Shown piece after piece: positions 22,899-50,453 of a stretch of DNA of 64,000 nucleotides (the stretch's first letter is position 1; each line of letters opens with the position of its first letter). This DNA comes from an uncultured delta proteobacterium (GTDB taxonomy: Bacteria > Desulfobacterota > Syntrophobacteria > Syntrophobacterales > Syntrophobacteraceae). A model generated the notes under the pieces. That model was not told the origin of the DNA. It worked only from the letters and a program-made list of their open reading frames with translations, and did not search any database. The DNA is taken from assembly GCA_963808625.1 (NCBI GenBank), contig CAWEHK010000015.1:1-64000 (forward strand), read 5' to 3'. The position numbers and the translations under genes are program-made.

Positions 22899-22994
22899 AA
22901 GGTACCCTTTCTTTTAAGGTGCAATGCAGTCAGGCAAGTAGCTATAATCTAGCAGATTCCCACGTATACTTGGGCGAAAATTCGTCGGGGTGTT

Positions 22995-26544: not shown

Positions 26545-26720
26545 CGGTTAGCTCTTGGCCCTTGGCTCTTAGCTCTTAGCTCATAGCCCTTGGCTTTTGG
26601 CTCTTGGTGGTTGGTGGTTGCCGATCAGGGTCCAGCCGTTGCGCCTTGGCACCTCATCGCCCGCACAAATCAACCATCAACCATCAACCATCAACGCTTT
26701 TTCTGACCACTGACCACTGC
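26538..26720. repeat. Mixed heptamer arrays (CTCTTAG/CTCTTGG, ACCATCA, CTGACCA)
   Basis: Direct reading of the spacer between the thiolase and the next gene. Confidence 0.75.
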
Positions 26721-32244: not shown

Positions 32245-33955
32245 CGGACGCCAGCTCCTCTTCCGCCCGTTCGATCACCTCCAGCAGTTGATCTTCGAGG
32301 TCGTCCAGCAGGCTTTCGGGTTCTCCGCCCCGGATGGCCTCCTCGTAGTTCCGTTTGAGCTTCCTGATTTCATTCCGCACGTTTTCAGACAGCCGCTGGT
32401 CATGGGCCAGGCGCCCGGCCTTTTCCGCCACGTAATTCACCGGGACTTCATCCGGTTCGCTTTCCTGGGCCTCCTCGATGGTTCTCCTTCTGATGTCAAG
32501 GGTCACCTCTTTGCGGTTGTCAAAACCCTTCTGATCGATACAGATGCGGACCAGGCCTTCACGATCGTAGGCAAATTCCACAATTACGGGGGAATTGGCC
32601 GGTGCCGGTTTGAGCGGGTAGGGAAACTCTCCGACCAGAGTATTTTCCGCACAGGAAAGGCTTTCCCCCTGGAACACCTCGACCTTGACCACCTCCTGCC
32701 GGTCGGCAATGGTCCAGTAGACTTGAGCGTGGCTGACGGGGATTCTCGTGTTCCTGCGGATAATGGTGGAGAAATGATCGGCCTCCCCGGTCTCAAAGTG
32801 TACCGAGTCCAGCGTCTTGACCCCCAGGGAATGAGCGGTGACATCAAGGAGGATTTGCCCCACGGCATCTCCGGTGATGAGCCCCCCTTGAATGGCGGCC
32901 CCCAGCGCGACGCAGAGATCAGGATCGACCGAATGTTCGACGGGTTGCTCGAAAAGCGCCGAGAGTGCTTCAAAGACGGCGGGCATCCGGGTGGCTCCAC
33001 CCACCAGGATGAGCTTGCCGATTTCGCGGGGTTCGAGATGGGCCTCTCGGAGCACCTCCTCGACCTTGCTCATGGTGCGCTCGATCAGATCCGCCGTCAT
33101 GGCCTCAAACTGCTCCCGGCTCATTTCGAGATCGAGGTTCAAAGGACGTCCCTCGAACATGGTCACGGCCACTTCGTTGATTTTCACATAGGGACGATCC
33201 GACAGCGCGATCTTGGTCCGTTCGGCAATATCGAGCAGCCGGACCTTGAGGCCGGGGTCCTCGTTCAGCTCTTTGCCGTCGAGCTGTGTTCGCAGCTCAC
33301 CCAGCAGGTACTCCTTGAGGAGCTCGTCGAAGTCATCTCCTCCCAGGGAAGTGTCGCCGCTGGAAGCCAGCACTTCCTTGATATCGCCTTTGATTTCCAG
33401 GATGGAGACATCGAACGTGCCGCCGCCCAGGTCATAGACCAGCACATAAGGGGATTCGCCATCCGCCTCGGAAGCAATGTGGTCGTAGACGAGGGCCGCC
33501 GCCGTCGGTTCGTTCACGATGCGGACCACCTCGAGACCGGCGAGCTCTCCTGCCCGGATGGTGGCTCTCCTCTGAGCGTCATCGAAATAGGCGGGGACCG
33601 TGATCACAACCTTCTCGACCGGCTGGCCCAGGCGCTCCGCCGCACGCTCGGCCAAATGTTTGAGAATGTAGGAGGAGATGACCTCCGGGGATAAGCTTTG
33701 CCGGCCCACGGTGACCGCCGATTCCTTTCCCATAAGCCGCTTGATCGAGGTAACGGTCGCCTCGGGAAAGGCTGCCCTCCGGTTTCTTGCCTGCCGCCCG
33801 ACCACATGGCTGCCGTTTTCAGCCTCGAAGCTGACCACCGACGGCAAAATGGCCAGCCCCTCCTCGACGGGAATGGCTTCGGGGCGGCCATCCTTGAGAA
33901 AGGCAATGACAGAATTGGTGGTTCCAAGATCGATACCGCATACAATGGGTTTCAT
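32237..33955 (-). CDS. Hsp70/DnaK paralogue (HscC-like); start 33955 or 33964
   Basis: GIDLGTTNS, VITVPAYFDDAQR, NEPTAAAL, DLGGGTFDVS, LVGGATRMP, ILLDVTAHSLG. The upstream part of the ORF-track ORF belongs to the frameshifted GrpE-like gene. Confidence 0.93.
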   Translation of the reverse strand: MKPIVCGIDLGTTNSVIAFLKDGRPEAIPVEEGLAILPSVVSFEAENGSHVVGRQARNRRAAFPEATVTSIKRLMGKESAVTVGRQSLSPEVISSYILKHLAERAAERLGQPVEKVVITVPAYFDDAQRRATIRAGELAGLEVVRIVNEPTAAALVYDHIASEADGESPYVLVYDLGGGTFDVSILEIKGDIKEVLASSGDTSLGGDDFDELLKEYLLGELRTQLDGKELNEDPGLKVRLLDIAERTKIALSDRPYVKINEVAVTMFEGRPLNLDLEMSREQFEAMTADLIERTMSKVEEVLREAHLEPREIGKLILVGGATRMPAVFEALSALFEQPVEHSVDPDLCVALGAAIQGGLITGDAVGQILLDVTAHSLGVKTLDSVHFETGEADHFSTIIRRNTRIPVSHAQVYWTIADRQEVVKVEVFQGESLSCAENTLVGEFPYPLKPAPANSPVIVEFAYDREGLVRICIDQKGFDNRKEVTLDIRRRTIEEAQESEPDEVPVNYVAEKAGRLAHDQRLSENVRNEIRKLKRNYEEAIRGGEPESLLDDLEDQLLEVIERAEEELASGE

Positions 33956-33959
33956 GATG

Positions 33960-34512
33960 TTCATTTTCCTTCCGGGCTGACGAGGGGGACATCCTCCCTC
34001 TTGCCGACGATAACCCTCGCGGGTCTGAGGACTTTGCCATCCTGCAGATATCCGGGCTGAATGACTTCGAGAACGTCCAACAATGGGGCATCCGGGGATG
34101 GTATTGGTCACCACTTCGTGAATTCGCGCATCGAAGGGGATGCCTTCGGCGAGGACCATTTCGATGCCGAAGAAATGGCGAACCGGTGCATTCGTCTGGT
34201 TGACCATTTGCAGCACCTGGGCGTGCTGGCGCGACATCAGCCCGGGATTTCGGAAGGCTCGCTGGAGGTGGAAAAGCGCATCGCAAAGGTCGATCAGGGG
34301 ACCCATGTCGCGCTTCTTTTCCCTGCGGCAGAGGCCTGCTGCTCCCGGTGAACCTCTTCGAGCAGCACGCCTTGCTTCCTGAAAAGCTTCTTCAGACTTT
34401 GCGTTTCTTCGAGAATGAGACGGTGAGGGTCTTCCTCCTCCTCTCCCTCTTCCTTCTTTGGACGCAACCATCCAAGATTTCTAAACCACCCCTTAACATT
34501 TTGATAAGACAT
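33960..34512 (-). CDS. GrpE-like nucleotide exchange factor, frameshifted
   Basis: Pieces across frames: ...EETQSLKKLFRKQ; GIEMVLAEGIPFDARIHEVV; VLEVIQPGYLQDGKVLRPARVIV (GrpE C-terminal signature). Confidence 0.8.
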
Positions 34513-35655: not shown

Positions 35656-36666
35656 AGTGGGTATGCACTTTACTCAACCGGCCGTGGAAGAACAAAGACA
35701 TCCGATTTCCGGCATTGATTATCCTGGAACATTCCAAGAGTTTGAGGAATGGTTTCAGCGGCGAAGAGGCCTGCCTCGAATTACATTGTCAGGCTTCGAT
35801 GGCCGGAAGCTTTCTGTTGCCCCAGTTGCGGGGATATCACGGAAAGGCCCTCTATGATGGGCCGTGGTCTCTTTCTTTGCAGGAAATGTAAGCGACAAAC
35901 TTCCGTTACTTCTGGAACATTGTTTCATAAAACTCACAAGCCGCTTCGAACTTGGTTTTTTGCCATGTGGTTTGTGACAAGCCAGAAGCATGGGGCCAGC
36001 GCTCTTGGCTTGCAAAGGGTTCTCGGCCTTGGAAGTTACAATACAGCGTGGACTTGGCTTCATAAACTGCGCCGTGCGGTGGTACGCCCTGGCGGGATCA
36101 ATTGACCGGAGCCATTGAAATTGATGAAACTTATGTTGGAGGCGTGGGACGTAAAAGTCCGTGGCCGAGGTGCTAAGCGGAAATCGATTGTTGCCATAGC
36201 AACAGAAGTTCGGGGACGCGGTCCTGGCAGAATTCGCATGTCGGTTGTTGCCAGATGTTTCCGCGATAAGCCTTCATAAATTCCTTTCGAATAACGTGGA
36301 AATGGGGCTGAAATCCGGACTGATGGATGGAACGGGTATAATGGCATCGAGAAATGGGTTTCAAGCATATTGTGACAAATATCTCCGCATAGTGGAGACC
36401 CTGCCCATATGGTTATGCCGCGTGTTCATCGTGTTGCATCCCTTTTAGATCGTTGGTGGCTTGGAATTCATCAAGGAGCTATAAGGCCAACATCTTGATT
36501 ATTATCTTGATGAGTTCACATTTAGGTTCAATCGACGCACATCCAAAGCCCGTGGTTTACTCTTCTATCGACTGATGGAGCAAACAGTGGATTGGTCCCT
36601 GTGTCCCGCCAAATGATCGTCGGTGGATCCACACTAGTAGATGGTTGAGCTAACTGCATACCCACT
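35656..36666 (+). mobile_element. IS1595-family insertion sequence, 1011 bp, transposase frameshifted
   Basis: 24-bp TIRs AGTGGGTATGCACTTTACTCAACC / AGTGGGTATGCAGTTAGCTCAACC; 8-bp direct repeat AAGATTTA at 35648-35655 and 36667-36674; transposase motifs RWPEAFCCPSCG, TSVTSGTLFH, EIDETYVG, YYLDEFTFRFNRR. Confidence 0.95.
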
Positions 36667-36876: not shown

Positions 36877-38718
36877 ATGGAGAATCCCTCTGATCAGCAA
36901 TCTGTGAACGAACAGCCCTCCGGCCTTGGGCCCTCACATGGCCGCTTCAATATCAAGGATCCAGCTATTTGGACGAAGATGGTTTACCTGCTCATTCTCG
37001 TAACTGGGGTTTATACAAGCACTCTCGTCCAGACCGACGAGGAGTTGCGAATATTATTTACCATTGGAGTTGTCATGGCTTGTGCCATTTCGATGTATTT
37101 TTGGTGGGTAGTGGTAAAGGATTTCCACAAAGCTATAGCATTCGCACAAGATCAGAAGTCAACTTCCACGGGCCTCATCGAAAACGGAGCAACATTGACC
37201 TCCGTAATGCAGGTCATGGAAATTCAAAGAAACATGCAGCTTGAAAGGTTTACCGAACGAGTGGTGCTGCGATCGAACACTTTGATTATGCTTGGCATGA
37301 TCGCTACGGCTTTGACCATCATCCTCGGTCTGCCCGGTATCCTTAGTTGCCCCCCGCCCGCAGCAATCAGATTGGATCGCACGGCCATCGAAGCTCCTCT
37401 GGGCGCGACGCGCGTTGATTCTGCCAAGGTTCTTAATGAGGAGATCAATAATGCAGACAAGTTAGACAATGGCTCTTCGTTGTCTGCGCCCGATCCTGCT
37501 CTCGAACGTGTCCTTCGCTTGGCTCCCAAAGCGTTCGCATTTACGGCTCTTGCGCTTTTCTTCGCCGTTGTCATCTCTTTTTTAGGAAACTTGTTGCGAG
37601 AGGAGATTCGCGCGCGATTTTTCGACCCAATCGATCAATGGAAAACTTACCAGGATATATCCTCTGCGGTAGATGAGAATAATAAGCGTTTCGCAAAGAC
37701 TTTTATTAAGGCCTTTGACAAACAGATCGGACCTAGCCTCCGCGAGATGACACTTGAATTGCAAAACCTGCCCAGTCAATTGACCGGGTCCGTGACTCTC
37801 ATGCAAAAGGCCTCGGATTTGCTGGCTAAGTCAGCCCAGGGAGTAAAGGGGTCTTTCAGTGAGGTTGCTGCCGCTACCAAAGGTTATTTCGACAAGGCTT
37901 CGTCTTTCTCCGAATCCTTGGCATCAACCAATTCCACTATGAGCAATATGACAAGCCAGCTGTCCGAGTTGCAAAGCAGGATCGAAACTCGGATGGACGA
38001 GACGGTTGAGAAAACACTTGAACTCCAGACCCAAAACCTGGAGCTTTTGAAGCAGGAACAGGAGGCATATCGCAAGGAATTGGGCAAACTCCAGGCAACC
38101 AAGCTCGATATGATTAAACGCGAACTGGAGGAATATCGCAAGATGTTCGTTCAGGAGATCCCCAGCTTGTCCCAGGATGTCCTGGAAAAGCTTCATGCTG
38201 CAATGAAAGCGCCGTTGCAAGAAGTCGCTACAGCGGCGGCAAGAAAACTCTCCGAACTTGGTGACGACACGATCACGCGCGTAGTAACGCAATGGAATAT
38301 ACATCTAAGAAACACGCAGGACACGCTGGGCAGAATAGAGAGCAGTGTGGGGCTGGTCAACAAAACGTTACGCGAACTTGGTGGCGCACTAGAATGGGCT
38401 GCCGAGACTTGGCGGCCGCTGGCCGATACCACCGCCAACACGCTGGAGTCGCTGGCGCCCAGTTTGGAGGAGCTGACCAAAAGCGCCAATACGGCAAATA
38501 AGGCGCTTAACCCCCTTGTACTTGATCTGGAGAAGATGATCGGTCTGGCCGATGGCGGCGATGGGGAAGGGTCTTCTGCTTTCGAAAGGCTGGAGACAAC
38601 AATTTTAGAAGTCAAGGCCGCGATCTACGATTTGAAAGTATTTTTGAACGAGACAGTGGCGGATGCGGCGCTGCTTGGCGAGATTACTGAGAAGCTCCGC
38701 ACGATCGAACTCAACTAA
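36877..38718 (+). CDS. ZorA-like MotA/TolQ/ExbB-type membrane protein with a long helical tail
   Basis: TM segments including TLIMLGMIATALTIILGL and PKAFAFTALALFFAVVISF, then about 370 aa of heptad-rich sequence; directly upstream of a MotB/OmpA gene. Confidence 0.7.
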   Translation: MENPSDQQSVNEQPSGLGPSHGRFNIKDPAIWTKMVYLLILVTGVYTSTLVQTDEELRILFTIGVVMACAISMYFWWVVVKDFHKAIAFAQDQKSTSTGLIENGATLTSVMQVMEIQRNMQLERFTERVVLRSNTLIMLGMIATALTIILGLPGILSCPPPAAIRLDRTAIEAPLGATRVDSAKVLNEEINNADKLDNGSSLSAPDPALERVLRLAPKAFAFTALALFFAVVISFLGNLLREEIRARFFDPIDQWKTYQDISSAVDENNKRFAKTFIKAFDKQIGPSLREMTLELQNLPSQLTGSVTLMQKASDLLAKSAQGVKGSFSEVAAATKGYFDKASSFSESLASTNSTMSNMTSQLSELQSRIETRMDETVEKTLELQTQNLELLKQEQEAYRKELGKLQATKLDMIKRELEEYRKMFVQEIPSLSQDVLEKLHAAMKAPLQEVATAAARKLSELGDDTITRVVTQWNIHLRNTQDTLGRIESSVGLVNKTLRELGGALEWAAETWRPLADTTANTLESLAPSLEELTKSANTANKALNPLVLDLEKMIGLADGGDGEGSSAFERLETTILEVKAAIYDLKVFLNETVADAALLGEITEKLRTIELN

Positions 38719-38757
38719 GCACCTCCATTGTCCAACTTATAAAAAGGTAAGAGTACC

Positions 38758-39672
38758 ATGTTCATAGGACGAAAAGAGGTCAATTTCTGGCCTGCATACG
38801 CTGATATGATGTTTGTGCTATTCATTCTGTCCTTTGTGATTGCGATAGGTGGCTACAGCCTGGGCAGGAAAGCTGAGGAATACCGGCAGAGGGCCTTCGC
38901 ATCCGAGAAGAAAGCCATGGAGTTCAAAAAGCAACTCAAGGATAGAAACGAACCACTTACCAGAGCACAGAAGGCGGTTTCGTATTGGAAGAACAAGGTT
39001 TCAAAACAGGAGATCGAACTCGCGAATCTGCAAATAGAAGTCGACAAATTGAAAATACGAGTCGCCGAATTGGAGCGAGGACACGAACCACCAGGGACAC
39101 CAGGAGCCGCCCACTGCGGTCTTGCCGAAGACTTCGTGACAAAAGTAATGAGCGACTTGGAGAAGGCCCAGCTCGGCACGGATGTTGCTGAGCGAACAGG
39201 CTGCGGTGTAGAGTTGAAGGAAGCGCTCTTATTTGATGTCGGAAAGGCTGAGCTAACAGACAGGGCGAAGGCCACAACGGTGGTTTCTATCCTGCTTCAA
39301 AACGCGCGAAAGCTTATTGCCGAGAACTCCGAGGCACTCGACTCCATAATCATTGAGGGGCATGCTGACTGCAAGGGCACGAAGGAGGCCAACTCCACGC
39401 TCGGTCTAGAGCGCTCTCAGGCGCTTTTCGCCATCGTCAAAGAGGTATTAAGTAGTTACGATAAGGAGACTCAATTCAAACTTGGTGCATACCTATCCAA
39501 CCGTTCCTTTGGTGAGTTCCGGCCGCTTAAGGACGTGAAATGTTCGGCACAACATTACGACAAGGTAGAATGCCAGCGGAATCGTCGCGTGGAGATCACG
39601 GTCGTTGGTAGGGTGGGGACCCACAACAAACCCAATTGGGAGACTATGACCTTGACCGGCAATGACGATTGA
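38758..39672 (+). CDS. ZorB/MotB-like protein: TM helix with conserved Asp, coiled coil, OmpA-like peptidoglycan-binding domain
   Basis: FWPAYADMMFVLFIL; LLFDVGKAEL; IEGHAD; NSTLGLERS; SFGEFRP; NRRVEI. Confidence 0.85.
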   Translation: MFIGRKEVNFWPAYADMMFVLFILSFVIAIGGYSLGRKAEEYRQRAFASEKKAMEFKKQLKDRNEPLTRAQKAVSYWKNKVSKQEIELANLQIEVDKLKIRVAELERGHEPPGTPGAAHCGLAEDFVTKVMSDLEKAQLGTDVAERTGCGVELKEALLFDVGKAELTDRAKATTVVSILLQNARKLIAENSEALDSIIIEGHADCKGTKEANSTLGLERSQALFAIVKEVLSSYDKETQFKLGAYLSNRSFGEFRPLKDVKCSAQHYDKVECQRNRRVEITVVGRVGTHNKPNWETMTLTGNDD

Positions 39673-39779
39673 AGCGCAAATTCAGGTAGCTTCTCGCCCC
39701 AAAGAACGTTCGATCAGCCGGTCATGACAGCATTGACAAGGAATGCGGCAATCCAGTTTCGTCGATGGTGGTTTCTTGA

Positions 39780-39896
39780 TTACTTGGCTTTTGGGCCGAT
39801 GATAACTTTTCCACACTTTGGGCAGGAGACTTTCTTCCATTCATCCATCCAGAACTCATGCTTGCAGTTGCTGCATTTCACTTTTATCTCTGCCAT
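39780..39896 (-). CDS. 38-aa Zn-ribbon microprotein
   Basis: Below the ORF-track size cutoff. AGGA RBS, then MAEIKVKCSNCKHEFWMDEWKKVSCPKCGKVIIGPKAK-stop (CxxC...CPxCG). Confidence 0.7.
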   Translation of the reverse strand: MAEIKVKCSNCKHEFWMDEWKKVSCPKCGKVIIGPKAK

Positions 39897-40130
39897 GTTT
39901 CCTAACCCCCTATTCTCGGTGAAAGAATATGACCCAACTAGGGCGACAAATATATACGGTTACCCAATCTCCCAGAAAATACCACCGCTCCACACAGTTC
40001 GACAATTAGCATGCCTGGTTGCCTAATCTCGCTATATTGTACAGGAAGTGCCAAATCTCGGGCACAATGCAGAAAAGCTTGTTACCCAAGGCGTTGGAGC
40101 CTATGGCAGTTAGCCTTGACTACCGATCGT

Positions 40131-41600
40131 TTACTCCGTCATAGCAGCTCTGTCTCTATATTTTATCGTATAGGTTGGATTCTCTAACATGATGTTTTGA
40201 CGAAAGAAATGTTGCAGGTTGTTCAATAGCGAAACGATCTCCCGTTTTCTTGGAGCGGAATCCGGGATGAGATGTTCAAAAAACCCCTGAGAAACCCCTT
40301 CACCCCATTCATGAACAAGCCTTAATCGTGGAGAATCTAACTTCGGAAATTCCAGAGAGGTTTGGCAGGTGGTTCTCACCTCTATGGCCCGTCGCTCGCC
40401 ATTATCAAGAAGCGGGATTTTCTTTTCTCCTCTTTCATCAACAACCGATGAAAGTCGTGGCAAAAGGGTGATCAACTGCGCGCCGGTAAATGGATCAGGT
40501 GGCGCACTCGCCTGAACCTCGATGTTCTGGCGAGCGCGAGCAAGCTCAGCCTCGGCATCGAAAAATGTGTGAGAGTTCTCGGATAGGGCACAAGTGATAG
40601 CGTGGGATGCCTCTTGTTGATCGCAAAAGAAGTCGCAATTTGAGTCCGCTGAAAGCTCCTGAAGCGACATGCGAGGGGGGGAAGTAAGAGCAAAGACGCC
40701 TTGGGCAGCTTGGTTGTAAGTACAGAAGTCGATCTTTGAAAACTCTTCAAGCTGGGTGTTCTGGGCCTTGAAAAAATATACGGGGACGGGATCGAAACGA
40801 TGCAGATATCTTGTTAGATCGCTCACGACCTTTGTCCCAAGATCGCCTTCGCGAAACATCCAGAATATGAACAACGGGGAAATATTGACTGGTGCATTGT
40901 TCTGAAACACAGGCTTCCGCAGCACAATCACGCCTGCCGAGACGTCAGGCACGTGTTTTTTCGCTAGGGGCGCTGCCACGCAACGCCCGAAGAGGGATGG
41001 CGTAAGCGAGTGCATGGGTGCTCTGACATTATCGCAAATCACTTCCTGTTGATCGAGATGATATCTCCTCAAGACCTCTCTGGGTGGGGTCTCCAAAACC
41101 AGGTCGGAGATGAGAAGGACCCCAGCAATTTTTTCATCATTGGCGAAGCGCTCTCCCATTACTTGAGCACACAAGGCCAGGTTGCTAAAATCGTCAATCA
41201 TCGCCAAGGGCACGGCTTTACCATTCTTACCCATCCGGTCCGGCAGATTGGCGACACTGTTGCCGATGCCTTGGTGCCTGTAGTTGTTCACGTGCGATAC
41301 GTCGCGAAGCCAAAGGCGCTCAAGGAACTCCCAGAGGGCAAAGAGGGCGCTCGCATTCTGATCACCGTGCTTATAATAAGGAGGCATCGATCTGGAAGTG
41401 TCCCAGAAGATCTGAATTTCCCTCTCTGGGAGAGAACTCTGGGAGGTCGAAAGGTCAGGTCCTGTCTGCAACGGCCGGCAGTAGCATTGTTGATCAACCG
41501 AAGAGCTACAGGAGGCTACCGCGAAGAAAACCACAAGCATAAATGAAAGAATCGCCGTCTTAGATCCAGCTTTGCTGATCATATCCAAATTACCGAACAT
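40131..41600 (-). CDS. Putative lipoprotein with a vWA-like MIDAS motif and a Cys-rich extracytoplasmic region
   Basis: Hydrophobic leader ending VASC; IQIFWDTSRSM (DxSxS) and VLLISD. Confidence 0.7.
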   Translation of the reverse strand: MFGNLDMISKAGSKTAILSFMLVVFFAVASCSSSVDQQCYCRPLQTGPDLSTSQSSLPEREIQIFWDTSRSMPPYYKHGDQNASALFALWEFLERLWLRDVSHVNNYRHQGIGNSVANLPDRMGKNGKAVPLAMIDDFSNLALCAQVMGERFANDEKIAGVLLISDLVLETPPREVLRRYHLDQQEVICDNVRAPMHSLTPSLFGRCVAAPLAKKHVPDVSAGVIVLRKPVFQNNAPVNISPLFIFWMFREGDLGTKVVSDLTRYLHRFDPVPVYFFKAQNTQLEEFSKIDFCTYNQAAQGVFALTSPPRMSLQELSADSNCDFFCDQQEASHAITCALSENSHTFFDAEAELARARQNIEVQASAPPDPFTGAQLITLLPRLSSVVDERGEKKIPLLDNGERRAIEVRTTCQTSLEFPKLDSPRLRLVHEWGEGVSQGFFEHLIPDSAPRKREIVSLLNNLQHFFRQNIMLENPTYTIKYRDRAAMTE

Positions 41601-42378
41601 TTGAGAGTTTACGCTGTTTACGCCTCTGCTCCCTCTCCAGCAATAGCTCCTGCACCTCCTTGAGTTCTCCTAATACCTTTTCTGGAACTGCCTTCTGTGT
41701 CTGGAGTTCTTGGAGACGCTCATAGACTCTCTGGCTGGAGAAAAAGAACACCCCTGCAAGACCTAGAATCGCCCATAACAACCATGAAGAGCTAGAGGAG
41801 GTCCCTATTGAAAGCCAGGAGTGCCCAAAAAAGTCGAGAAGAATAACCGAGATGGGCACAAAGATCAAAAGCCAAGATGTGATCTCCCCAACAATAAATG
41901 CCCGTGCCTTGATGCTCAAGTCTCGCCTTGCAACCGTCACGTTGTTGAAAAATACCACACCTGCCAAACCCAAAATTGCCCAAACCAATAGCAAAGTAAT
42001 AACAGTTTCCTCAAAAATAAAGCGTCCCCAAATCATTTCGATAACCGCAATAACAGATGGAAAAAACAGCAATAACCAACAGAGACTTTGGCCAAGAATA
42101 AAGATGAGGCGTATGCTCGGCGACCGTTCGTCTCGATCCGTCCTACCCGTGGTGAGAAGAAACACACCCAAAAGGCCCACGACTGCCGAAATCAGCAACA
42201 ACGGCATGGGAATGCCTTTCAAAATCAGTGGCCCCCAAATTGTCTCAACGAGGGCAGCACCACAAGGAAAGAACAGCAGGAGCCAACACATGACATGCCC
42301 CAAAACCAAAAGCACAGACATGCCACCTGGTGCTGCCACCTTCCACGATGAATAGGCATCTCGCTTGTCCTGCATCAT
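41590..42378 (-). CDS. Membrane protein with three tandem two-TM repeats and a C-terminal coiled coil
   Basis: Three copies of G-x4-WLL(L/I)F(F/V)P...GL(L/A)GV. Confidence 0.8.
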   Translation of the reverse strand: MMQDKRDAYSSWKVAAPGGMSVLLVLGHVMCWLLLFFPCGAALVETIWGPLILKGIPMPLLLISAVVGLLGVFLLTTGRTDRDERSPSIRLIFILGQSLCWLLLFFPSVIAVIEMIWGRFIFEETVITLLLVWAILGLAGVVFFNNVTVARRDLSIKARAFIVGEITSWLLIFVPISVILLDFFGHSWLSIGTSSSSSWLLWAILGLAGVFFFSSQRVYERLQELQTQKAVPEKVLGELKEVQELLLEREQRRKQRKLSNVR

Positions 42379-42487
42379 GGGCTTAACTCTTTAATATCTA
42401 AAGATTTACAATCAAAAGAGACCCAACTCCATGCTTTTTGGCATTCGCGTTTTGGTCGGTTGAACAAAAGGTGAGAACAACACACGT

Positions 42488-43447
42488 CTATTGAATTCTG
42501 ACCCTTCCCTTCCGCAGCATAAGGCCGTTTTGGTCGGCAACTGCTGGGCTGACCAGGTCACTAATCGTTGCCACCGGCAGTTTCCTGTCGTCTTCATCAT
42601 CAAAGAACTCACGGATATTGGCAAAAAAGTGATGCAACGGTACGAGTAGCACTTCGTTAGAGCCCTCTTGCCGAATTCTTGCCAGGTCGGCGTTCCCCGA
42701 GGCGGGCTCGATGGTGTACCTCGGCGGGATTCCAATGCCCTCGAAAAAGGCTCGCAGTTTGGCAATATCACCTTTGTGGTTTCCACCTTCGAAAGTCCAG
42801 AATGCTCGCCACTGCCTCACCACGATTTCTTCGAAGTTCAATTGCCGGTTACCCGATAACGGATGTGGAAATTGGGGCTTCAGTTCCGATTTCCGATGTT
42901 CTCGAACGGCCTCGGAAGCATTTTGCATCACGTTTCCGGGCAAATTGGCTTGCTTGCTAACCGAGGGGGCTGTTTCGTTTGCCGGAGGCTGCACTTCCTC
43001 TACCGTTGCAGCCCCAACAGGGAGGGGAAGCATTCGGTAGATGCGTGATAACTGCAAGGTAAGATTGTTTGTTCTGATTCGAATTTCCTTATAGCTTTCT
43101 TCCAGCGCCAGGGTTCGGGCCTCCATAGCCACTACCGTGTCCCAAGCCGTCCCAAGCTCGGGTTTCATAGGTTCTTTATTCCCGAGTTGTCGCCGTTGTC
43201 CAATTTTCTCTTTCGCGATCCAACCGAACGCCACCCCAAGCCCTAAAGCACACCCAAAGCGAGCAAGCGAAATAGGGAGGCTCTCTGGACTTGGGAACGG
43301 CAGCAGGATGGTGAATAACACAAGCATCAACATGGCGATGCCAATAACCCAAATCCGCGTGTTTTGCTTGTGAAAGAAACTCGAGTTCGTGCTCACGATT
43401 ATCCCCTCGGCTGGCTTACTTTGTGATGCTTCGAGTCCCTTTTTCAA
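42488..43447 (-). CDS. Two-TM protein with a coiled coil and a possibly GrpE-like C-terminal beta domain
   Basis: Overlaps the stop of the giant ORF by 4 nt; ends ISDLVSPAVADQNGLMLRKGRVRIQ. Confidence 0.7.
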   Translation of the reverse strand: MKKGLEASQSKPAEGIIVSTNSSFFHKQNTRIWVIGIAMLMLVLFTILLPFPSPESLPISLARFGCALGLGVAFGWIAKEKIGQRRQLGNKEPMKPELGTAWDTVVAMEARTLALEESYKEIRIRTNNLTLQLSRIYRMLPLPVGAATVEEVQPPANETAPSVSKQANLPGNVMQNASEAVREHRKSELKPQFPHPLSGNRQLNFEEIVVRQWRAFWTFEGGNHKGDIAKLRAFFEGIGIPPRYTIEPASGNADLARIRQEGSNEVLLVPLHHFFANIREFFDDEDDRKLPVATISDLVSPAVADQNGLMLRKGRVRIQ

Positions 43448-46400
43448 ATGCGATTGGCCCGGGGTCGGTGCCTGAGGTATTCGACCAGGATCCTAAAGGG
43501 GCTCAACTGTAGGGACATCAAAACAGCGTCAGGCAATTCACGTAATTCTGACACCAGATCAAACTGGTCTCGGTCGTCAAACAAGTGGCGACACAGCCGC
43601 GGAGTGGGCTGGCCTTGGTCCAATAAGAATTCAAGAGACTTTGCCGTCTTGCTCTCAATTCTGAAGGGCAGCTTCTTCTTCCATCTGTAGACACTGCATC
43701 TCTGTCCCCGGTAAGTTTCTTCACCGTTGTCATGGTAATCGACAATATCCACAAGATTAAAAGTTTTCGGTTTTTTTCTGTAGCTGACCAAATCAGCCTC
43801 ACCCATCTGATCTGCAAGGCGACGGGCAAGCTCTGTCTTACTATCTTCGCTGATCCTGGCCCCCTTTTCTCGTGACTCGATCATCACCCGGACCGACTGT
43901 TTGCCCTCCCTCAACAACTGATTGGCCCGGTCGTTAATGGTTGCCACATAAGGCTCTATGCTATCCTTAGTCGTTTCATTAAGCATCCAGCCCATGCCCA
44001 AGAGGTCGATCTTCACAGGATAAACGCTGTCGATCCCGTCTTTCCCGCTCTCGATCAATTCCCCCTCTACCGCAAATGAACCCACTGCGGCGGGGCTCAA
44101 GTCCCTCCTATGACATTTCACCGCGATCGCCGCGGCCCACCGGCTGATGATCTCCCGCGCCAAGTCGTATGCGCCTTGGATTGTCGGATAAGATTTGTCC
44201 TTGCCTGTGATAATATAGCGCATTGTCTCTTGCGGTTCATATCGAATACGATATAGGAGGGAATGCTCTGCCTTGTGGCCGAAGTCTCGATCCAGTTGAC
44301 GCAACAGGTCGTCACCGCCAAACCTGAAACTCTCGGCCCACTGATGCCTTCCAAAACCTGGATAAAAACCACCCCACAGGTCGATAGAACCACCGCCAAG
44401 GTCAGCGACCACGTAAACGTTGCCGCTGTTAGCTCCGGACGTTAGTTTCCCGGCTAGCGACTCCCATTGAAAATGGTTATCGAACTGGATGCCGGTCATG
44501 GCAGTCAAAGTGGCCGTAATTCTGTCGACATCGTCTTTAAATTTGGGGAATTGGTCCCACATCCGCAAGGGAAGGCCAAAGGTGACGCGAATCCTTTCGG
44601 GGAGTCCATGCTGAAGATCATCCTGCTCCATACCGACCCGAAGGGCCAGGCAAATCTCGATCAAATGAAGCAAGTACGATCTACGAAGCTGCAGCTGGTG
44701 GTCTTCAGACAACCCTCCCTGCGTGGTATCGAACCACTTAAACGATGTGCTGCCGCGACGGCCGCCCCAAACATCCTCATTGATCACTGATTTTTCCAGC
44801 GCATTGATCGTAAAGTCCTTCTTGTATCTCATCCCACCCAATTTTCCTGCCAAGCTAACTACCGTCGGGTTGAGCGAAGTCATTAGAGAGGGGACGAGGG
44901 CAGATCCAGCCACATTAGGATTAGTGTTGAACGTTGGGAACCAAGTCCATGAGTCCATGGTAGTCCTCTCATCCTTGGTTACCACAAGCGTTTGATCAAG
45001 CTTGGCGGCGGTCGTGATGTTAACGCTTTTGGGACCGGCTTTTGCTGCTACCACTGTACTGTAGGTGCCAAAATCTACCCCCCACTGCTCAGGGCCAATG
45101 AGCCTGCTGACGTCTTTCATAAGTGCCACCCGAAACAAACCCACACCACGAGAGCGGTCAGTATCGTCTCGCAGCAACACTGTAAAAAACGTTGGTCTGC
45201 CGCCTCTCTGGAAAGAGAGCTCCGTTTCACTCAAATCAAACAGGGGCTGCCCAGAATAATGGTGGTGCAATAGTCTCCTTGACAACCCCTGACTATTGCT
45301 TCCGGTCATGAACACGGCGAGGATGCTGTCCGTAGCGCTGAAATTGGCAAACGCGTAGTAGGCGTTCCATCCGTCCAGCTCGAATTTTGGCCAGAAAGCA
45401 ATGGTGCATGGCTGTGGCCTTTGCTCGATCCTTACAGGCCACCTTTCCTCGTCGGGCCTACCCTTCAACTTGAACATGTAGCTGATGGTGGCCGCTGGCC
45501 CACTTATATTCTTGCTGTGCCTGGCTTCGTAGTTGATTAGGTCGGCATAAGCCGCCTTCACTGGATAGTCCGGGTAGATGGGCTCCTCGCCTTGTTGTAG
45601 CGTTACCCTGCCAGCAAGTGGAGCCACGGCGTTGAGCAACACCGCGGTGGTAGCAGGGATAATGTCAAACTCATCGGGCGTATGGATACACCATGCCACG
45701 GTGCTCTCAGGGGTTCCCTTTTTTGTGTCAGCAAAGCAGAAACCGAATCGAAACCTTGCCACCAAATTCTTATAGAGGTCAGCCCAGACAGCGATCCTTT
45801 TCTCGTTCCCGTTCTTTGAGAAAAAGATGAATGGTGGACACTTTTTGCTGTCACGCAGAAAATCGACTATCTTTATCACCTCAGTGGGAGTGTCCTGGGT
45901 GCTACTATCCCCAAGAGAGATATCTTTCACCGTTTGAAACCCAAATCGTAGGATCTGTTGTTTCATCTTTTGGCGATTCCGTCTACCCACCACGGGCAAG
46001 GCCAGAGGCAGCGACGCTGAACCGTTGGACCAACGAATATTGAATAGTTGAGCCTCGTTATCGTCCAAGAGGTCGAACTCAAAGGATGGATCGTACACCC
46101 TTTCACTCGAAAGGTCGGGATGGTTCAGCAAGTATTGAAACCAGTAAGGCTTGTCACTTGAACCATGGAGGGTATCGTGCATGTCGCTCAGAAATAGGAG
46201 CCACCCTTTAAGGGTCTTCCTGCCCTCCTGAATCCTGCGATCCGTGTCCTGAAGGTGGTCTTCAACTTTCGGCCAGTCGACGCCCGCAGAGGGGCAAAGC
46301 AGAGTCTCTGGGTCGGATACAGCCAGGAGCCCAGGAAAATCCTGGCTGTCGAGGTACAATCCAACCTGTCGCTCAAGGCGATTTGCCTCGTTAGGGATGG

Positions 46401-48141
46401 TCTCATTGTAACAATCAGTCAGAGAGATTTGTCCTTGGCCAATGTCTGGGAGATAGCGGTGTATTATGATTCTGCCGGCGGCCACCCCCTTGAGGAGCAT
46501 TAATACCCGCTCGGCAAGCACCTTGCCCTTATCGAACGGAGCCGCCGCATTCGGATCCTCGGAGAAGCGACGCAAGAAGGACTCCAATAGAAATCTGATG
46601 GAAGCGGTGCTTGGTACTGCGCGGGCATCGATGTGATCCAATCGGATCAGTGTTTCACTGGGCAGTTGATTAGTGATGTTCTCGATAGTGCCAATTGCGC
46701 TTTCGTTGTATCCCGCCACGTCTTGGGGAAGGGCGGGCATGCAGCGCTCCGCGCTTGTGCGATCTCCGTCTAGGTGATTCGAAAGTGATTTCAGAATCCA
46801 AGCCCTAGGTACACCACCTTCTTGACCCTCAACACTGACCTGCAGCCAATCACGGACATAATCCACACCCCCAAGGTTGCGCAAGGTCCCGCTTTTCGGT
46901 TCGAAATCCAACAGCTGCTTGATTTGCTCCTGGTTTTGGAAGATCGATGGCTGAAAGTCGTGAAGCCGTTTCAGTGCCATCATTTTCAGTTCGAAAACCT
47001 TCTGGACCCGAGCAGTACTTAACTGCATTCGATCCAGGGCAGCGATCACCAGTCTTCCAGGGAAGAGAGACCATCTAACCGATTTAGGCCAACGAGTGTA
47101 GGTCATGAAAACGGCCAACCGGTAACATAGAGAGACATTCCAGTTGATAAGGTTCGCGAATCGGAATGCCGGTCTAACCTCATCTTTGGCAACGGCCACG
47201 CCGTTAAAAGTCCAGGCACTGTCCGGAAGGATCAGGTCTCCATCTTGGAGTTGTGGACAGACCATGGTGAAGAGCCCTGTTTCCATGCTGCTATTTTGGG
47301 AAAAAAGATTTGAGGCTGCGATTGCGCCATAGTAGGGGACGGTCAGGATGTGATGGTAGCTCTGTCGTGTGTCGCTTTGCCAAGGGCGGGAACCTGCTCG
47401 TTCTATATTAGGATGGCCCAACACCAGCGTCATAGCGAGCTTCTGGAGCTGATCCCGGAAATAAAGAAAAGCGCTGGATGCCCGCGTTTTCATCTCCGAA
47501 TTGCGCCTGTCGGCATCCTCGACGTGGCCTTGGACGGTGTCGCCCCCCAGTCGGAACCAAGGCAGGAACAGGCAGGCCGCAAGTAGCGATGAAGGATCGC
47601 GACGGCTTGCGAGGCTTTCGACGAGACGAGGCAGGCACCCTGCGCCTGTGCCTCCGACCGAGGACCCGGAAATCAAGAAACGGGAGCCCGGGTTCTTGAT
47701 CTGATCTCGAATTCTGTAAAAAGGTGTCCCCTTTTCCGTGCTCCATTTGCTGTAGGTATGGTTGAACACTGTAGCGCCTACCGCTGCTTGTCCATAATAC
47801 CCATTCCGATACCTGACCTTTCGTTGTTCCTCGTCAAAAAGCCACTGACGCTGTGGTTCAACGATGGTCTCATTGAACGTATTACCTGTAAGCGTGTCAT
47901 CGAAGGGCGCAAGATAATGGAAGCCCTCAACGTTCATCTCCAGGGATTGCATCCGATCGAACATTTCGATGAATTTTTGCCAGGCTGACGTTCCTTCGTC
48001 ATCAGATGCATCAGCGTCGAGCAGATAAAAAGTTGGTAGGTGCCATCCGTCCTGGATCAGATAAGACAAGGCGGCGAGATCGATGTATGCCAGCGCAACG
48101 TGCTGTCCCGTACCCCCCACGGCTATGAAATGATTGCTCAC
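43444..48141 (-). CDS. About 1565-aa protein: N-terminal tubulin/FtsZ-like GTPase domain and C-terminal actin/Hsp70-fold ATPase domain
   Basis: GTG start at 48141 after AAGGGG; FIAVGGTG and SGSSVGGTGAG (tubulin/FtsZ loops); WGVDFGTYST and VADLGGGSID followed by FGGDDL (ASKHA phosphate-1 and phosphate-2). Confidence 0.8.
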   Translation of the reverse strand: MSNHFIAVGGTGQHVALAYIDLAALSYLIQDGWHLPTFYLLDADASDDEGTSAWQKFIEMFDRMQSLEMNVEGFHYLAPFDDTLTGNTFNETIVEPQRQWLFDEEQRKVRYRNGYYGQAAVGATVFNHTYSKWSTEKGTPFYRIRDQIKNPGSRFLISGSSVGGTGAGCLPRLVESLASRRDPSSLLAACLFLPWFRLGGDTVQGHVEDADRRNSEMKTRASSAFLYFRDQLQKLAMTLVLGHPNIERAGSRPWQSDTRQSYHHILTVPYYGAIAASNLFSQNSSMETGLFTMVCPQLQDGDLILPDSAWTFNGVAVAKDEVRPAFRFANLINWNVSLCYRLAVFMTYTRWPKSVRWSLFPGRLVIAALDRMQLSTARVQKVFELKMMALKRLHDFQPSIFQNQEQIKQLLDFEPKSGTLRNLGGVDYVRDWLQVSVEGQEGGVPRAWILKSLSNHLDGDRTSAERCMPALPQDVAGYNESAIGTIENITNQLPSETLIRLDHIDARAVPSTASIRFLLESFLRRFSEDPNAAAPFDKGKVLAERVLMLLKGVAAGRIIIHRYLPDIGQGQISLTDCYNETIPNEANRLERQVGLYLDSQDFPGLLAVSDPETLLCPSAGVDWPKVEDHLQDTDRRIQEGRKTLKGWLLFLSDMHDTLHGSSDKPYWFQYLLNHPDLSSERVYDPSFEFDLLDDNEAQLFNIRWSNGSASLPLALPVVGRRNRQKMKQQILRFGFQTVKDISLGDSSTQDTPTEVIKIVDFLRDSKKCPPFIFFSKNGNEKRIAVWADLYKNLVARFRFGFCFADTKKGTPESTVAWCIHTPDEFDIIPATTAVLLNAVAPLAGRVTLQQGEEPIYPDYPVKAAYADLINYEARHSKNISGPAATISYMFKLKGRPDEERWPVRIEQRPQPCTIAFWPKFELDGWNAYYAFANFSATDSILAVFMTGSNSQGLSRRLLHHHYSGQPLFDLSETELSFQRGGRPTFFTVLLRDDTDRSRGVGLFRVALMKDVSRLIGPEQWGVDFGTYSTVVAAKAGPKSVNITTAAKLDQTLVVTKDERTTMDSWTWFPTFNTNPNVAGSALVPSLMTSLNPTVVSLAGKLGGMRYKKDFTINALEKSVINEDVWGGRRGSTSFKWFDTTQGGLSEDHQLQLRRSYLLHLIEICLALRVGMEQDDLQHGLPERIRVTFGLPLRMWDQFPKFKDDVDRITATLTAMTGIQFDNHFQWESLAGKLTSGANSGNVYVVADLGGGSIDLWGGFYPGFGRHQWAESFRFGGDDLLRQLDRDFGHKAEHSLLYRIRYEPQETMRYIITGKDKSYPTIQGAYDLAREIISRWAAAIAVKCHRRDLSPAAVGSFAVEGELIESGKDGIDSVYPVKIDLLGMGWMLNETTKDSIEPYVATINDRANQLLREGKQSVRVMIESREKGARISEDSKTELARRLADQMGEADLVSYRKKPKTFNLVDIVDYHDNGEETYRGQRCSVYRWKKKLPFRIESKTAKSLEFLLDQGQPTPRLCRHLFDDRDQFDLVSELRELPDAVLMSLQLSPFRILVEYLRHRPRANRI

Positions 48142-48173
48142 CGTCAAAGACCCCTTCTGTTTAATCAGTTTGT

Positions 48174-48629
48174 TTAGCGTTTTGATAGCCAAACATAAAA
48201 GATCGGCAAAAGCGCCAATGCTGTGCCGATAAGTAGGCTTATGATCTGATGGGACGACTGGATGGTCCAGGTGTAGCGAAAGAATGAGCCGCAACCCCAC
48301 CAGATGAGACTCAGCACGAGCAGCCCCCCTATTGGAAACACCGTAACGGCCAAGAGCAATGGTTTTGTCCACAGGTTAGCCCAGCTATAATCAGGGGGAC
48401 TGACTTTGGCCAATGCTCGACACTGGCCCATGTGAGCGAAAAGACAGACGAAGCATGCCACGATTCCGCAAAAAACAGGGACTCCGTAAACGATCCATCC
48501 CCAGAACAAAATCAGCCAGTTGCACGAGCTAGCTGAAGTCGATTGCGCGTGGCATACGTTCCCGATCCATGCCTCGGCGGCAATCAGAATCGGGACCCCT
48601 CTTATGGTCCAGCTAAAGCGTCTTTTCAA
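48174..48629 (-). CDS. Small multi-pass membrane protein, first gene of the tubulin-like operon
   Basis: AGGT RBS with TTG start; possible signal peptide and three hydrophobic segments. Confidence 0.6.
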   Translation of the reverse strand: MKRRFSWTIRGVPILIAAEAWIGNVCHAQSTSASSCNWLILFWGWIVYGVPVFCGIVACFVCLFAHMGQCRALAKVSPPDYSWANLWTKPLLLAVTVFPIGGLLVLSLIWWGCGSFFRYTWTIQSSHQIISLLIGTALALLPIFYVWLSKR

Positions 48630-49427
48630 TGGCTTACCTCTGCGACGTCAAAAGGTTACTCCTTTAGAAATGCACAAAAAGGGAACAGCGTATTCACCCT
48701 ATAATTTAGGCTCGGTCAGCCTGTCAAGGGTAAATGGGTGTGATCAAGAGCTTTACCAGCATCCGGTGAAAAAAAAGACTTGAAGCAGGTTTTTAGGGAG
48801 TCTGAGAAAGGACATTTTGGGTGGAAATTGCATTGGGACAGCATGGGAGACCAACTGAGAGGGGGGCCGCGAGAAAACAAAGGAAGATCGAAAGAGGTTT
48901 TCAATGTTTATCCTGAGGTAAGGCAAAGAATCCGGGACTGTCTGCGATCTCCCCGGAGCCAAGAGCAAAATTTAGTAGTCCGGGAGAAAAAACCCTTGGA
49001 AATCTTCACCGATTTATTGTATTCGAAAGCCGAACCATCTACTCAGGAAGACTATAAACAAGAAGTTCCACCCGAGGGTAACTGTCGGACCATGTCGGCA
49101 CCGAATCACTAAATAGGAACAACATGCGAAGAGTGGCCTATCAAGGATAGCTTCGGAATGTAGGTGCCATGCCGTTTGCGAGCCTGGAAGCCGGCATCGG
49201 AGCATATTCGCAAGGTTAAAACCCCGCTGGCAAAGAAGGCGAAGCAGAGCTCTGGTGCTTGAGTGCAGAAGTAGATCTAGGAATATCCCGCCAAAGTATG
49301 CTGTCATAATTCGCATGGAGCATATTGGAGCTGAAAAATATGGCGATTTATACACCATCTAATTCATCGCTAACGCAGCCTGCTGCGGTGCCAGCGAAGG
49401 GGAAGAAGGCCCAGGGAGAATGCGAAC

Positions 49428-50453
49428 ATGAGTAGATCACCACAGGAACTCGAAACCCAGTATCACAAGCTGGAGGGCACAGCGAACAGGTTTGCCTTAT
49501 CGCTAATAGATCAGTTCGGGCACCTCTTGAAAGACCACGACATCCCACTCGGTATTCCCATCGAACACCGGGTGAAGTCATGGGACTCCATAGCCGAAAA
49601 AATCGAACGGAAAGAGATCGGCCTGAACGATCTCACCGAGCTCTCCGACTTCGTGGGGTTACGCCTCATACCACTATTCAAACGAGACGTGCTCAAAACC
49701 AGTGAGATTATCTGCAATAAATTTAGAGTTATCAAAGAGGAAGACCTTGTCAGCCGACTGAAGGAGGACCAATTCGGGTACCAATCCCGCCATCTCCTAA
49801 TAACCATACCGGAAGTCTGGCTCGAAGTGCCGTCGCTCGAGGAGTTTGCGTCACTGAAAGCAGAAATCCAGATAAGGACTCTCGCACAGCACATGTGGGC
49901 TGCCGCCTCTCACTACCTACAGTACAAACGAGAGAGCGCTGTTCCGTTGCCTATACGACGCTCGATCCACCGCGTTTCGGCCCTCCTGGAGACCGCCGAC
50001 CTCGAGTTTGATCGAGTGCTTGAAGAGAGGGATGCCTACCGAAATAAATTTGAACAGGTGCCGCAGCAAGCATCACTTGACGTCGATCTCCTCGCACGAG
50101 TTCTCGACGATTCTTTGCCAAAAGAGAACAAGGTGCCTCAAGAGCACTACAGCGAGCTTCTTGACGATCTGAAAGCTTTCGGTATTGAGACCGTGGACGC
50201 GTTCCGGGATTTGGTCGTGTCGATGCGTGAGAAGGTTCTTGCACACGAGAGAAAGCAAGTTCTAGACGCAAAGAGAAGAAACTACATCGGCACATCCAAA
50301 GAGCGCAATGACCGGGGTCTCTTCTTCAGCCACGTAGGCCTTGCTCGACAGGCTTTGATAGAGAAGTTTGGGAAAGATAGATGGGAGAAATACTTTTCGC
50401 AGATAAAGCAGAAGAAAGAAGGCTCGGATGATCACGAATCAGCACACCATTGA
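49428..50453 (+). CDS. RelA/SpoT-domain small alarmone synthetase homologue
   Basis: HRVKSWDSIAEK, DFVGLRL, GYQSRH, EIQIRTLAQHMWA; no HD hydrolase domain. Confidence 0.92.
   Translation: MSRSPQELETQYHKLEGTANRFALSLIDQFGHLLKDHDIPLGIPIEHRVKSWDSIAEKIERKEIGLNDLTELSDFVGLRLIPLFKRDVLKTSEIICNKFRVIKEEDLVSRLKEDQFGYQSRHLLITIPEVWLEVPSLEEFASLKAEIQIRTLAQHMWAAASHYLQYKRESAVPLPIRRSIHRVSALLETADLEFDRVLEERDAYRNKFEQVPQQASLDVDLLARVLDDSLPKENKVPQEHYSELLDDLKAFGIETVDAFRDLVVSMREKVLAHERKQVLDAKRRNYIGTSKERNDRGLFFSHVGLARQALIEKFGKDRWEKYFSQIKQKKEGSDDHESAHH

Follow-up and report, generated by a model that had tools for sequence, protein, structure and literature searches.

A ZorAB-like, probably ion-driven motor paired with a giant tubulin-actin protein: a rare module in several bacterial phyla

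At positions 36877 to 48629 of the stretch of DNA analysed here, two gene units of very different character face each other. Are they parts of a single machine and, if so, what might such a machine do? The whole stretch, referred to below as the window, comprises 64 000 nt (positions 1 to 64,000 of contig CAWEHK010000015.1, assembly GCA_963808625.1) from an uncultured delta proteobacterium of the family Syntrophobacteraceae. The plus strand encodes a ZorA-like and a ZorB/MotB-like protein, the putative A and B subunits of an ion-driven stator; the minus strand encodes a giant soluble protein with two predicted NTPase domains, several membrane proteins and a lipoprotein-like protein. An earlier reading of the letters of the sequence (the original prediction) had described these genes, which listing and translation of the open reading frames (ORFs) place at or near the same positions, and had proposed that the two units are one machine. 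The pairing of such an ion motor with a tubulin-actin giant is a rare module, present in several bacterial phyla. That the 11.8-kb block is one functional module is very likely. The explanation towards which we lean overall, by a modest preference, is a conserved module in which a ZorAB-like stator acts with the giant dual NTPase.

The giant (43444-48141, minus strand; the longest ORF extends to 48372) has 1565 aa when read from its likeliest start, a GTG at 48141 with AAGGGG just before it, as judged by sequence inspection; a 65 %-identical relative, P0003, begins exactly at the same position. From the N-terminus it has an FtsZ/tubulin-fold domain, then a stretch of about 600 aa (the middle region), then an actin/Hsp70-fold (ASKHA) domain, and it ends in a tail of about 100 aa; a hydropathy scan found no hydrophobic segment. 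As a single sequence it had no usable match in Pfam, NCBIfam, PADLOC or the PDB sequences, and none to the Pfam family Tubulin_2 (PF13809) at 0.01, or at 1e-5 in the genome search. A word-based homologue search returned P0003 only and a single-protein scan of genome contigs returned none; a family alignment was needed to collect loci. An HMMER scan of 1.84 billion representatives with the last 1199 residues of the giant found 54 proteins at E<=1e-3, 31 of them 1431-1821 aa long. The alignment of 30 full-length members consists of the window protein and 29 of these 31 (P0036 and P0046 were left out). The GGTG tubulin signature (G240-G243) is invariant in 30/30, and so are the ASKHA phosphate motifs (D1100/G1102; D1324-L-G-G1327, D1331). 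This indicates that the two-NTPase architecture dates back to the ancestor of the family and did not arise by a local fusion.

Family-level comparisons identify both folds. Tubulin_2 is matched by 11 of the 30 members (best 4.1e-5), and the Atlas features of giant residues 70-480 give 0.94 to Tubulin_2 clusters. Two structure models were built, both on family alignments. The model of residues 60-520 has a predicted local distance difference test score (pLDDT) of 87.2 and a predicted template modelling score (pTM) of 0.90. Its top Foldseek match is FtsZ 1ofu_A (3.7e-5), and the matches listed are, but for the one at rank 49, FtsZ or tubulin; in the VIA comparison it aligns with FtsZ at Z 16.5 (root-mean-square deviation 3.9, 218 aligned, FtsZ residues 11-307), and all 50 VIA rows are FtsZ, CetZ or PhuZ. 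The model of the C-terminal 558 residues (1085-1642; pLDDT 81.2, pTM 0.87) has an alpha/beta ASKHA fold and matches MreB (Z 18.2), FtsA (18.0), DnaK (17.1), Hsp110 (17.1) and PilM (17.1). In the models the C-terminal domain is thus an actin/Hsp70-superfamily ATPase, with the candidate branches tied in Z, and the double NTPase of the original prediction is confirmed, at the level of predicted fold.

One relative separates the two domains. In a metagenome-assembled genome of the archaeal order Methanosarcinales (L011:271-4665) the giant is split into two adjacent genes, of 737 aa and at least 726 aa, by a TAA followed by GGAGGT and an ATG, and the break falls within the middle region. As the second gene has its own ribosome-binding site, this suggests that the halves are separable partners.

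Whether the giant belongs with the stator-like pair was asked of its relatives. Loci were taken from one-genome-per-species contigs (17) and metagenome contigs (14), and removal of identical and near-identical copies left 27 distinct giant genes, two of which are tandem copies on one Rhodothermales chromosome. Cluster profiles from the first-pass families were run over all ORFs of these loci. A ZorA-like and a ZorB-like gene lie within 10 kb of the giant gene in 21 of the 27, mostly in one co-directional string; such co-occurrence had been named beforehand as a test in the original prediction. In one more locus, L019, the contig begins 129 nt ahead of the giant gene, and the last 51 residues of a ZorB-like gene (43 % identity, 2.4e-12) are encoded there; in L011, L012, L021 and L030 the contigs end before the expected position of the pair. 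The recurrent order is a small transmembrane (TM) protein, the giant, a 280-320-aa membrane-anchored protein (checked in one alpha-clade locus, L010, and one beta-clade locus, L007), a lipoprotein of the family here called p489/c3, the ZorA-like protein and the ZorB-like protein. The position of the lipoprotein gene varies by locus, before or after the ZorA-like/ZorB-like pair.

The giant tree has three clades (alpha, beta and gamma) with SH-aLRT support of 99-100, and every clade is accompanied by a ZorA-like family of its own. Placed on the ZorB-like tree, the giant-clade labels need 2 changes, the minimum, and 0/200 shuffles reached so low a count; the alpha clade is supported there at 100/99. 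Gamma, the clade of the window, contains L002 and L019. In L002, the nearest relative with flanks, all five shared window genes have orthologues, arranged on a single strand as ZorA-ZorB-giant-319-(108)-489, which suggests that the convergent layout of the window is a rearrangement of a single operon. Co-occurrence, matching trees and the co-directional string of L002 together indicate that the plus- and minus-strand units are one module, for which gene content, folds, conserved motifs, conserved linkage and co-diversification are all observed. Since the linkage and the trees agree, and no PADLOC, Pfam or NCBIfam model names the locus, both outcomes that the original prediction had listed as refuting it (homologous operons lacking the pair; a match to an already named system) are absent, and its proposal of one machine is supported. 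On the Rhodothermales chromosome two diverged copies of the whole module (L017 and L018) stand in tandem about 12.7 kb apart, each with giant, c9, c3, ZorA-like and ZorB-like genes; an extra ZorB-like gene follows the first copy, and Mutator-family transposases and an HEPN_Swt1 gene lie downstream.

The B subunit (38758-39672, plus strand, 304 aa) has an N-terminal TM segment with Asp16, a coiled-coil insert and an OmpA-type domain. It matches PADLOC ZorB1 (3.5e-16), the NCBIfam models Pal (7.6e-8) and MotS and, just below the 27.2-bit cut-off, Pfam OmpA (1.9e-5, 25.3 bits), in line with the MotB/OmpA protein originally described; the ZorB-like protein of L017 matches ZorB1 at 1.9e-47. W11 and D16, of the WPAYAD motif in the N-terminal TM segment, are invariant in 17/17 aligned family members, and the OmpA-type blocks GHTD, N..L...R and RRV are conserved in the family alignment. 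Four Cys residues are conserved in 9-12 of the 17 members (beta and gamma clades). There is good evidence in these sequences that this is a MotB/ZorB-like stator subunit.

The A subunit (36877-38718, plus strand, 613 aa) has hydrophobic segments at 62-80, 137-155 and 219-237 in a hydropathy scan, followed by about 370 helical residues that match only helical and coiled-coil entries in Pfam and the PDB. Its orthologue in L002 (L002:983-3781; blastp 6.9e-8) matches the ZorA1 profile in the TM core, at positions 138-204 (4.5e-8), and the A-type neighbour in L017 matches it at positions 113-426 (5.8e-8); matches of this kind to the TM core are seen only in these two relatives. Across 12 sequences G140, A145, P217 and T223, the Thr of TM3, are invariant, and position 144, in TM2, is Thr or Ser in 11/12. 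The three ZorA-like families are related in hhalign comparisons (c7 with c12, 97 %; c5 with c12, 79 %; c5 with c7, 76 %), and the divergent L005 ZorA-like protein is related to c7 at 90 %. It is probable that the two subunits form a true ion-driven stator of the 5:2 type.

A number of results weigh against the explanation that we prefer. The window A subunit itself matches PADLOC ZorA1 and ZorA3 in its tail region only (1.3e-4 to 4e-4), the profile of the ZorA-like family matches only coiled coils and helical bundles in the PDB, such as designed coiled coils and apolipoproteins, and 0/20 in-frame slices of the A-subunit TM region match Pfam MotA_ExbB at E<=0.5. Of the MotA-like protein with a long tail in the original prediction, the three TM segments and the tail therefore stand, and a MotA/ExbB-type core is, from these sequences, weakly supported. 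A stator pair is missing from one relative, L016, whose flanks are complete. Many of the loci are kin, so that 21/27 overstates their independence and the independent observations number about a dozen sub-clades; the five Thermoanaerobaculia giants, for instance, have end branches of only 0.15-0.23 on the giant tree. As regards function, Pfam, PADLOC and NCBIfam show no toxic or nuclease domain in any gene of the module, and PADLOC found no known defence system among 16 neighbours of the window copy at 1e-5.

The mechanism that we favour has four core parts: a ZorAB-like stator, with a peptidoglycan-anchored B subunit bearing a putative ion-relay Asp and an A subunit with a cytoplasmic tail of about 370 residues; the soluble 1565-aa protein, in which a divergent GTPase of the FtsZl1/Tubulin_2 branch is predicted to be joined to an actin/Hsp70-fold ATPase; a membrane-anchored adaptor, encoded right after the giant; and a lipoprotein, presumably exported, that bears a vWA-like motif of a metal site. 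On the model of Zorya, the stator would sense a disturbance of the envelope and report it through ion-driven movement of the tail, and the tail would recruit or activate the giant at the disturbed spot of the inner membrane. Links from the assembly to the periplasm and outer layers may be made by the TM adaptor and the vWA-like lipoprotein, and the output would be a nucleotide-driven scaffolding or remodelling activity and not a nuclease. We infer in this scheme the ion drive, the contact of tail and giant, the polymerisation of the giant and the biological role. A bolder version is possible, if doubtful: a fourth ZorAB-based kind of system, in which the rotating tail switches a tubulin-/actin-fold NTPase where Zorya would switch a nuclease. 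A local breach of the envelope, sensed by the ion motor, would set off the nucleotide-driven assembly of a cytoskeleton-like patch that seals, remodels or sacrifices the membrane there. If this is true, the FtsZl1 proteins gain both a function and an upstream signal.

The candidate adaptor of the window is a 319-aa membrane-anchored protein (42488-43447, minus strand) that contains a coiled coil; its C-terminal part, residues 207-316, is a conserved domain shared with L002 (35 % identity, 1.6e-13) and L019 (9.6e-11). It had been described as a 2-TM coiled-coil protein: the hydropathy scan calls one segment, at 32-50, and inspection of the translation by eye adds the second, at about 61-78, and the coiled coil. 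In L007 (beta) and L010 (alpha) the giant is followed by proteins of 281-287 aa in which the scan calls two segments. The lipoprotein-like protein (40131-41600, minus strand, 489 aa) has homologues in loci of all three clades (hhalign of p489 and c3, 97.4 %), and D67, S69 and D166 are invariant in 22/22 members. Of the vWA lipoprotein originally described, a lipobox-like VASC and a DxSxS motif are present; 0/22 members match a vWA Pfam model at E<=1, the family profile has 0 matches in the PDB, and the Atlas places the family in unnamed clusters only. Its vWA identity is thus at motif level only.

The remaining minus-strand genes are a 262-aa membrane protein (41590-42378) with five to six hydrophobic segments, specific to the window; a 151-aa membrane protein (48174-48629), directly upstream of the giant, with three hydrophobic segments; and a 38-aa ORF with two CxxC pairs (39780-39896), Zn-ribbon-like as read from its sequence and a doubtful member of the module. 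A tblastn search of L002-L032 with these three and with three flanking small ORFs found no relative, which suggests that the module is conserved without the Zn-ribbon, triple-repeat and 151-aa genes. The three repeats claimed for the 262-aa protein are visible in its translation, and it is their place in the module that falls away; the Zn-ribbon microprotein is likewise real as this 38-aa ORF, and not as the 52-aa ORF at 39682-39840. A small TM protein is encoded upstream of the giant in most related loci (families c8, c18 and c20), and hhalign detects no homology among the three families (probability <=35%). No PADLOC match at E<=0.01 was found for the six minus-strand proteins scanned.

The block is compactly arranged. 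Start and stop codons overlap between the giant and 319-aa genes (4 nt) and between the 262-aa and 489-aa genes (11 nt), as had been described; a start of the giant at GTG 48141 leaves no overlap with the 151-aa gene. The 38-aa ORF lies 234 nt downstream of the 489-aa gene. The convergent units are about 460 nt apart, or 107 nt if this ORF is counted. A promoter and terminator scan of 36-49.5 kb gave counts equal to those of shuffled sequences.

What the module does is less clear than what it contains. It is accessory in nature, with only 54 representatives in 1.84 billion and a window copy in a low-GC stretch free of the heptamer arrays described below, next to a small alarmone synthetase gene of the RelA/SpoT type; a search of 40 genomes from the same genus, family, order and class did not find the giant. 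The flanks of relatives carry conflict-type genes (CHAT-TPR, caspase, PIN, HEPN_Swt1 with transposases, TerB, RtcR and SNase) and, in some, Ser/Thr kinases. In the alpha clade a kinase gene (L026:11842-14538) and a gene for a CHAT-TPR protease-like protein (L031:19931-23167) each stand directly after a ZorB-like gene. L016 is flanked by two CHAT proteins (2770-6003 and 22826-23881) and a caspase/FGE-sulfatase protein. The CHAT-TPR, kinase and caspase/FGE-sulfatase neighbours of the alpha clade could be clade-specific effectors. The evidence for a defence role is circumstantial: an anti-phage or conflict-related role has a little under an even chance in our estimate, and envelope remodelling or maintenance, the next candidate, roughly one in three.

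The envelope role is taken furthest by the strongest rival explanation, a tentative one, in which the module is not immune at all but a machine for maintaining the envelope or transducing force, its stator energising a trans-envelope assembly in the manner of TolQR/Tol-Pal or ExbBD/TonB. The giant would be a cytoplasmic scaffold and the lipoprotein its outer partner, in the service of vesicle formation, outer-membrane tethering, adhesion or surface movement. In Tol-Pal and ExbBD-TonB an ion-driven 5:2 stator of the inner membrane acts together with a lipoprotein of the periplasm or outer membrane and powers processes in the latter; in the Agl-Glt gliding machinery of Myxococcus the partners of such a stator also include an actin-like cytoskeleton, a vWA adhesin and a small GTPase. 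The module shares only its logic with these three systems; genes like those for TolA/TonB or Glt are not seen in it, and its long cytoplasmic tail is a Zorya trait. Makarova and Koonin predicted membrane remodelling for FtsZl1 operons with vWA and OmpA-family genes (PMC2875224), which agrees with this rival, as do the putatively exported lipoprotein, the several TM proteins, the absence of a nuclease or toxin domain from the module and the OmpA-type C-termini adjoining canonical Tubulin_2 genes in 4/14 regions of the same phylum. A patchy accessory distribution (0/40 relatives, 54 representatives in 1.84 billion), the position of the window copy in a lower-GC island, the conflict-type neighbours of several relatives and a B subunit that scores best against Zorya ZorB profiles fit it poorly.

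It is improbable, as a second rival has it, that the giant is an Hsp70-type chaperone or GTPase switch that forms no filament and, powered by the stator, deploys or secretes a vWA-like lipoprotein adhesin. The best PDB matches of the family profile are indeed DnaK nucleotide-binding domains (2.6e-5, in two colinear stretches), the second phosphate motif is of the DLGGG(T/S)xD type, and the p489/c3 lipoprotein is kept in all three clades. However, MreB, FtsA, DnaK and PilM tie within 1 Z unit, so that Hsp70 is not favoured over actin-like proteins, and the vWA identity is itself unproven. Furthermore, Pfam finds neither an HSP70 match nor an Hsp70 substrate-binding domain in the giant or its family, and only about 100 residues follow the ATPase fold of the giant. 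Finally, that the two units are unrelated neighbours that met by chance in an island, as their convergent arrangement on opposite strands about 460 nt apart in the window might suggest, is very improbable and is rejected, since it is contradicted by linkage in 21-22 of the 27 relatives, by the matching trees and by the co-directional string of L002.

The conserved module, with its stator acting on the giant, resembles the Zorya systems in its motor, as far as the passages retrieved from the structural work describe it (Hu et al., 2024; PMC11946911). There, EcZorA has three TM segments, the Asp in the N-terminal TM segment of ZorB is essential, and EcZorB has two disulfides per monomer and no linker between the TM segment and the OmpA domain. 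Like Zorya types I-III, the module has a B subunit with an Asp in its N-terminal TM segment, an OmpA-type domain and conserved Cys pairs, an A subunit with three TM segments and a very long cytoplasmic helical tail, and adjacent A and B genes beside genes for soluble partners. In the window ZorB-like protein, unlike EcZorB, an extra stretch of about 80 residues, which looks coiled-coil by eye, separates the TM segment from the OmpA domain, and the module A subunit, unlike that of Zorya, is too divergent for Pfam MotA_ExbB. At most partial Zorya matches had been expected, and PADLOC gave ZorB1 and the ZorA tail only; it found no relative of ZorC, D, E, F or G, and the partners in the module are a tubulin-/actin-fold giant, TM adaptors and a lipoprotein. 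In further contrast with Zorya, the module is known here from its genes alone, and defence is a candidate role.

The giant resembles a second known kind of system. Makarova and Koonin (2010) described FtsZl1 operons with vWA, GTPase, kinase and OmpA-family genes, and typical FtsZl1 proteins with a coiled coil and an alpha-helical C-terminus (PMC2875224); MotA, MotB, ExbB, Hsp70 and DnaK do not occur in that paper, nor does an actin/Hsp70 domain. The giant shares with FtsZl1 a divergent FtsZ-like N-terminal domain with GGTG (PF13809 being matched by 11/30), linked vWA-like and OmpA-type genes, Ser/Thr kinases near some relatives and a patchy distribution over bacteria and archaea. In contrast to typical FtsZl1, its branch ends in an ASKHA ATPase, and the OmpA-family gene is here a ZorB-like subunit with a ZorA-like partner, which goes beyond the 2010 description. 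The model of the giant shows both halves of the FtsZ core, beyond the reach of the sequence methods applied to FtsZl1 in 2010. In a later study, as seen in excerpt, Tubulin_2 proteins were handled as a divergent outgroup (Santana-Molina, 2023; PMC9871819), and passages of a 2025 paper on MotAB evolution (PMC12505986) do not mention tubulin, FtsZ or Hsp70. A literature search, with subscription-only papers and supplements outside its range, found no paper linking ZorAB with tubulin or Hsp70. The system joins two known kinds, ZorAB stators and FtsZl1 operons, and extends the FtsZl1/vWA/OmpA systems predicted in 2010.

Canonical PF13809 genes were compared within the phylum of the window, where they occur in 12 of 301 genomes sampled. 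In 4 of the 14 regions fetched (L052, L055, L056 and L062) a neighbour ends in a ZorB/OmpA-type C-terminus. Three of these (L052, L055 and L056) are from one genus, and in them the Tubulin_2 gene is followed by a gene for a 542-547-aa protein whose C-terminus matches ZorB3/OmpA (~1e-9); this neighbour may be the 'OmpA family' partner of 2010. An RtcR-like regulator lies near the L055 Tubulin_2 gene and a kinase near that of L052. The only ZorA match at 1e-4 in the 14 regions is that in L051, weak and tail-like. The profiles used here thus detect a complete stator pair with the fused branch and not with the sampled canonical PF13809 genes, near which more divergent pairs may occur. In another region of the same phylum (L058; G238:C123:93000-112600) three Tubulin_2 paralogues of 1152-1347 aa stand head to tail, and the flanking ORFs scanned had no PADLOC match.

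Both folds of the giant are also those of the FtsA-FtsZ and MreB systems, and its nucleotide-site motifs are conserved as in these. Unlike FtsA and FtsZ, its two folds are in one polypeptide, with about 600 residues between them, in an accessory module, and a role in division or cell shape is not indicated. The FtsZl1 proteins are widespread and very divergent relatives of tubulin whose role has been unexplained since 2010, and ZorAB has so far been understood structurally only with DNA-targeting effectors. The module ties the FtsZl1 branch to a ZorB-like stator subunit with a long-tailed A partner, and to an ASKHA fusion. It offers a way to study how an ion motor affects a cytoskeletal NTPase, and raises the question of whether stators with tails signal generally, beyond Zorya. 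As a compact unit of 12 kb it can be cloned, and point mutations could be aimed at the Asp of the B subunit, at the GTP signature loop and at the phosphate motifs of the ATPase.

The window copy lies where GC is 0.49-0.53 (34-58 kb), most of the flanks being at 0.55-0.60. Nine tandem arrays of 7-bp units lie outside 26.7-58.9 kb and none within that span, which bears out the absence of heptamer repeats from the block in the original prediction. The arrays are intergenic, at 9227-9312, 15563-15655, 21205-21295, 25191-25300 and 26534-26607 in the left flank and at 58928-58959, 59242-59297, 61060-61175 and 61291-61362 in the right, and the unit differs in sequence from one array to another. We take them to resemble the short tandemly repeated repetitive (STRR) sequences of filamentous cyanobacteria; the HIP1 octamer has 2 matches, with 1.8 expected.

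Of the toxin-antitoxin, small alarmone synthetase and SLOG genes described for this accessory region, the synthetase-like gene (49428-50453, plus strand), divergent from the module, is well matched (RelA_SpoT 2.4e-19) and also matches the PADLOC candidate PDC-S33 (1.5e-15). The SLOG match in the window is sub-threshold (24.5 bits), and the putative toxin-antitoxin pair has no Pfam match; two small overlapping ORFs beside the synthetase-like gene, at 49014-49581, have no family match. At the left edge of the low-GC stretch is a fragment of an IS1595-type transposase zinc ribbon (35749-36105, plus strand; 2.1e-9). Further left, at 30148-34471 on the minus strand, is the gene for a 744-aa Hsp70 (Pfam HSP70 2.2e-131) that is extended at its N-terminus by about 176 residues. 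This gene overlaps by 8 nt a downstream gene whose 698-aa product has no Pfam or PADLOC match. From their sequences, these two genes resemble an accessory Hsp70 pair; their GC is like that of the host, and they lie immediately outside the island.

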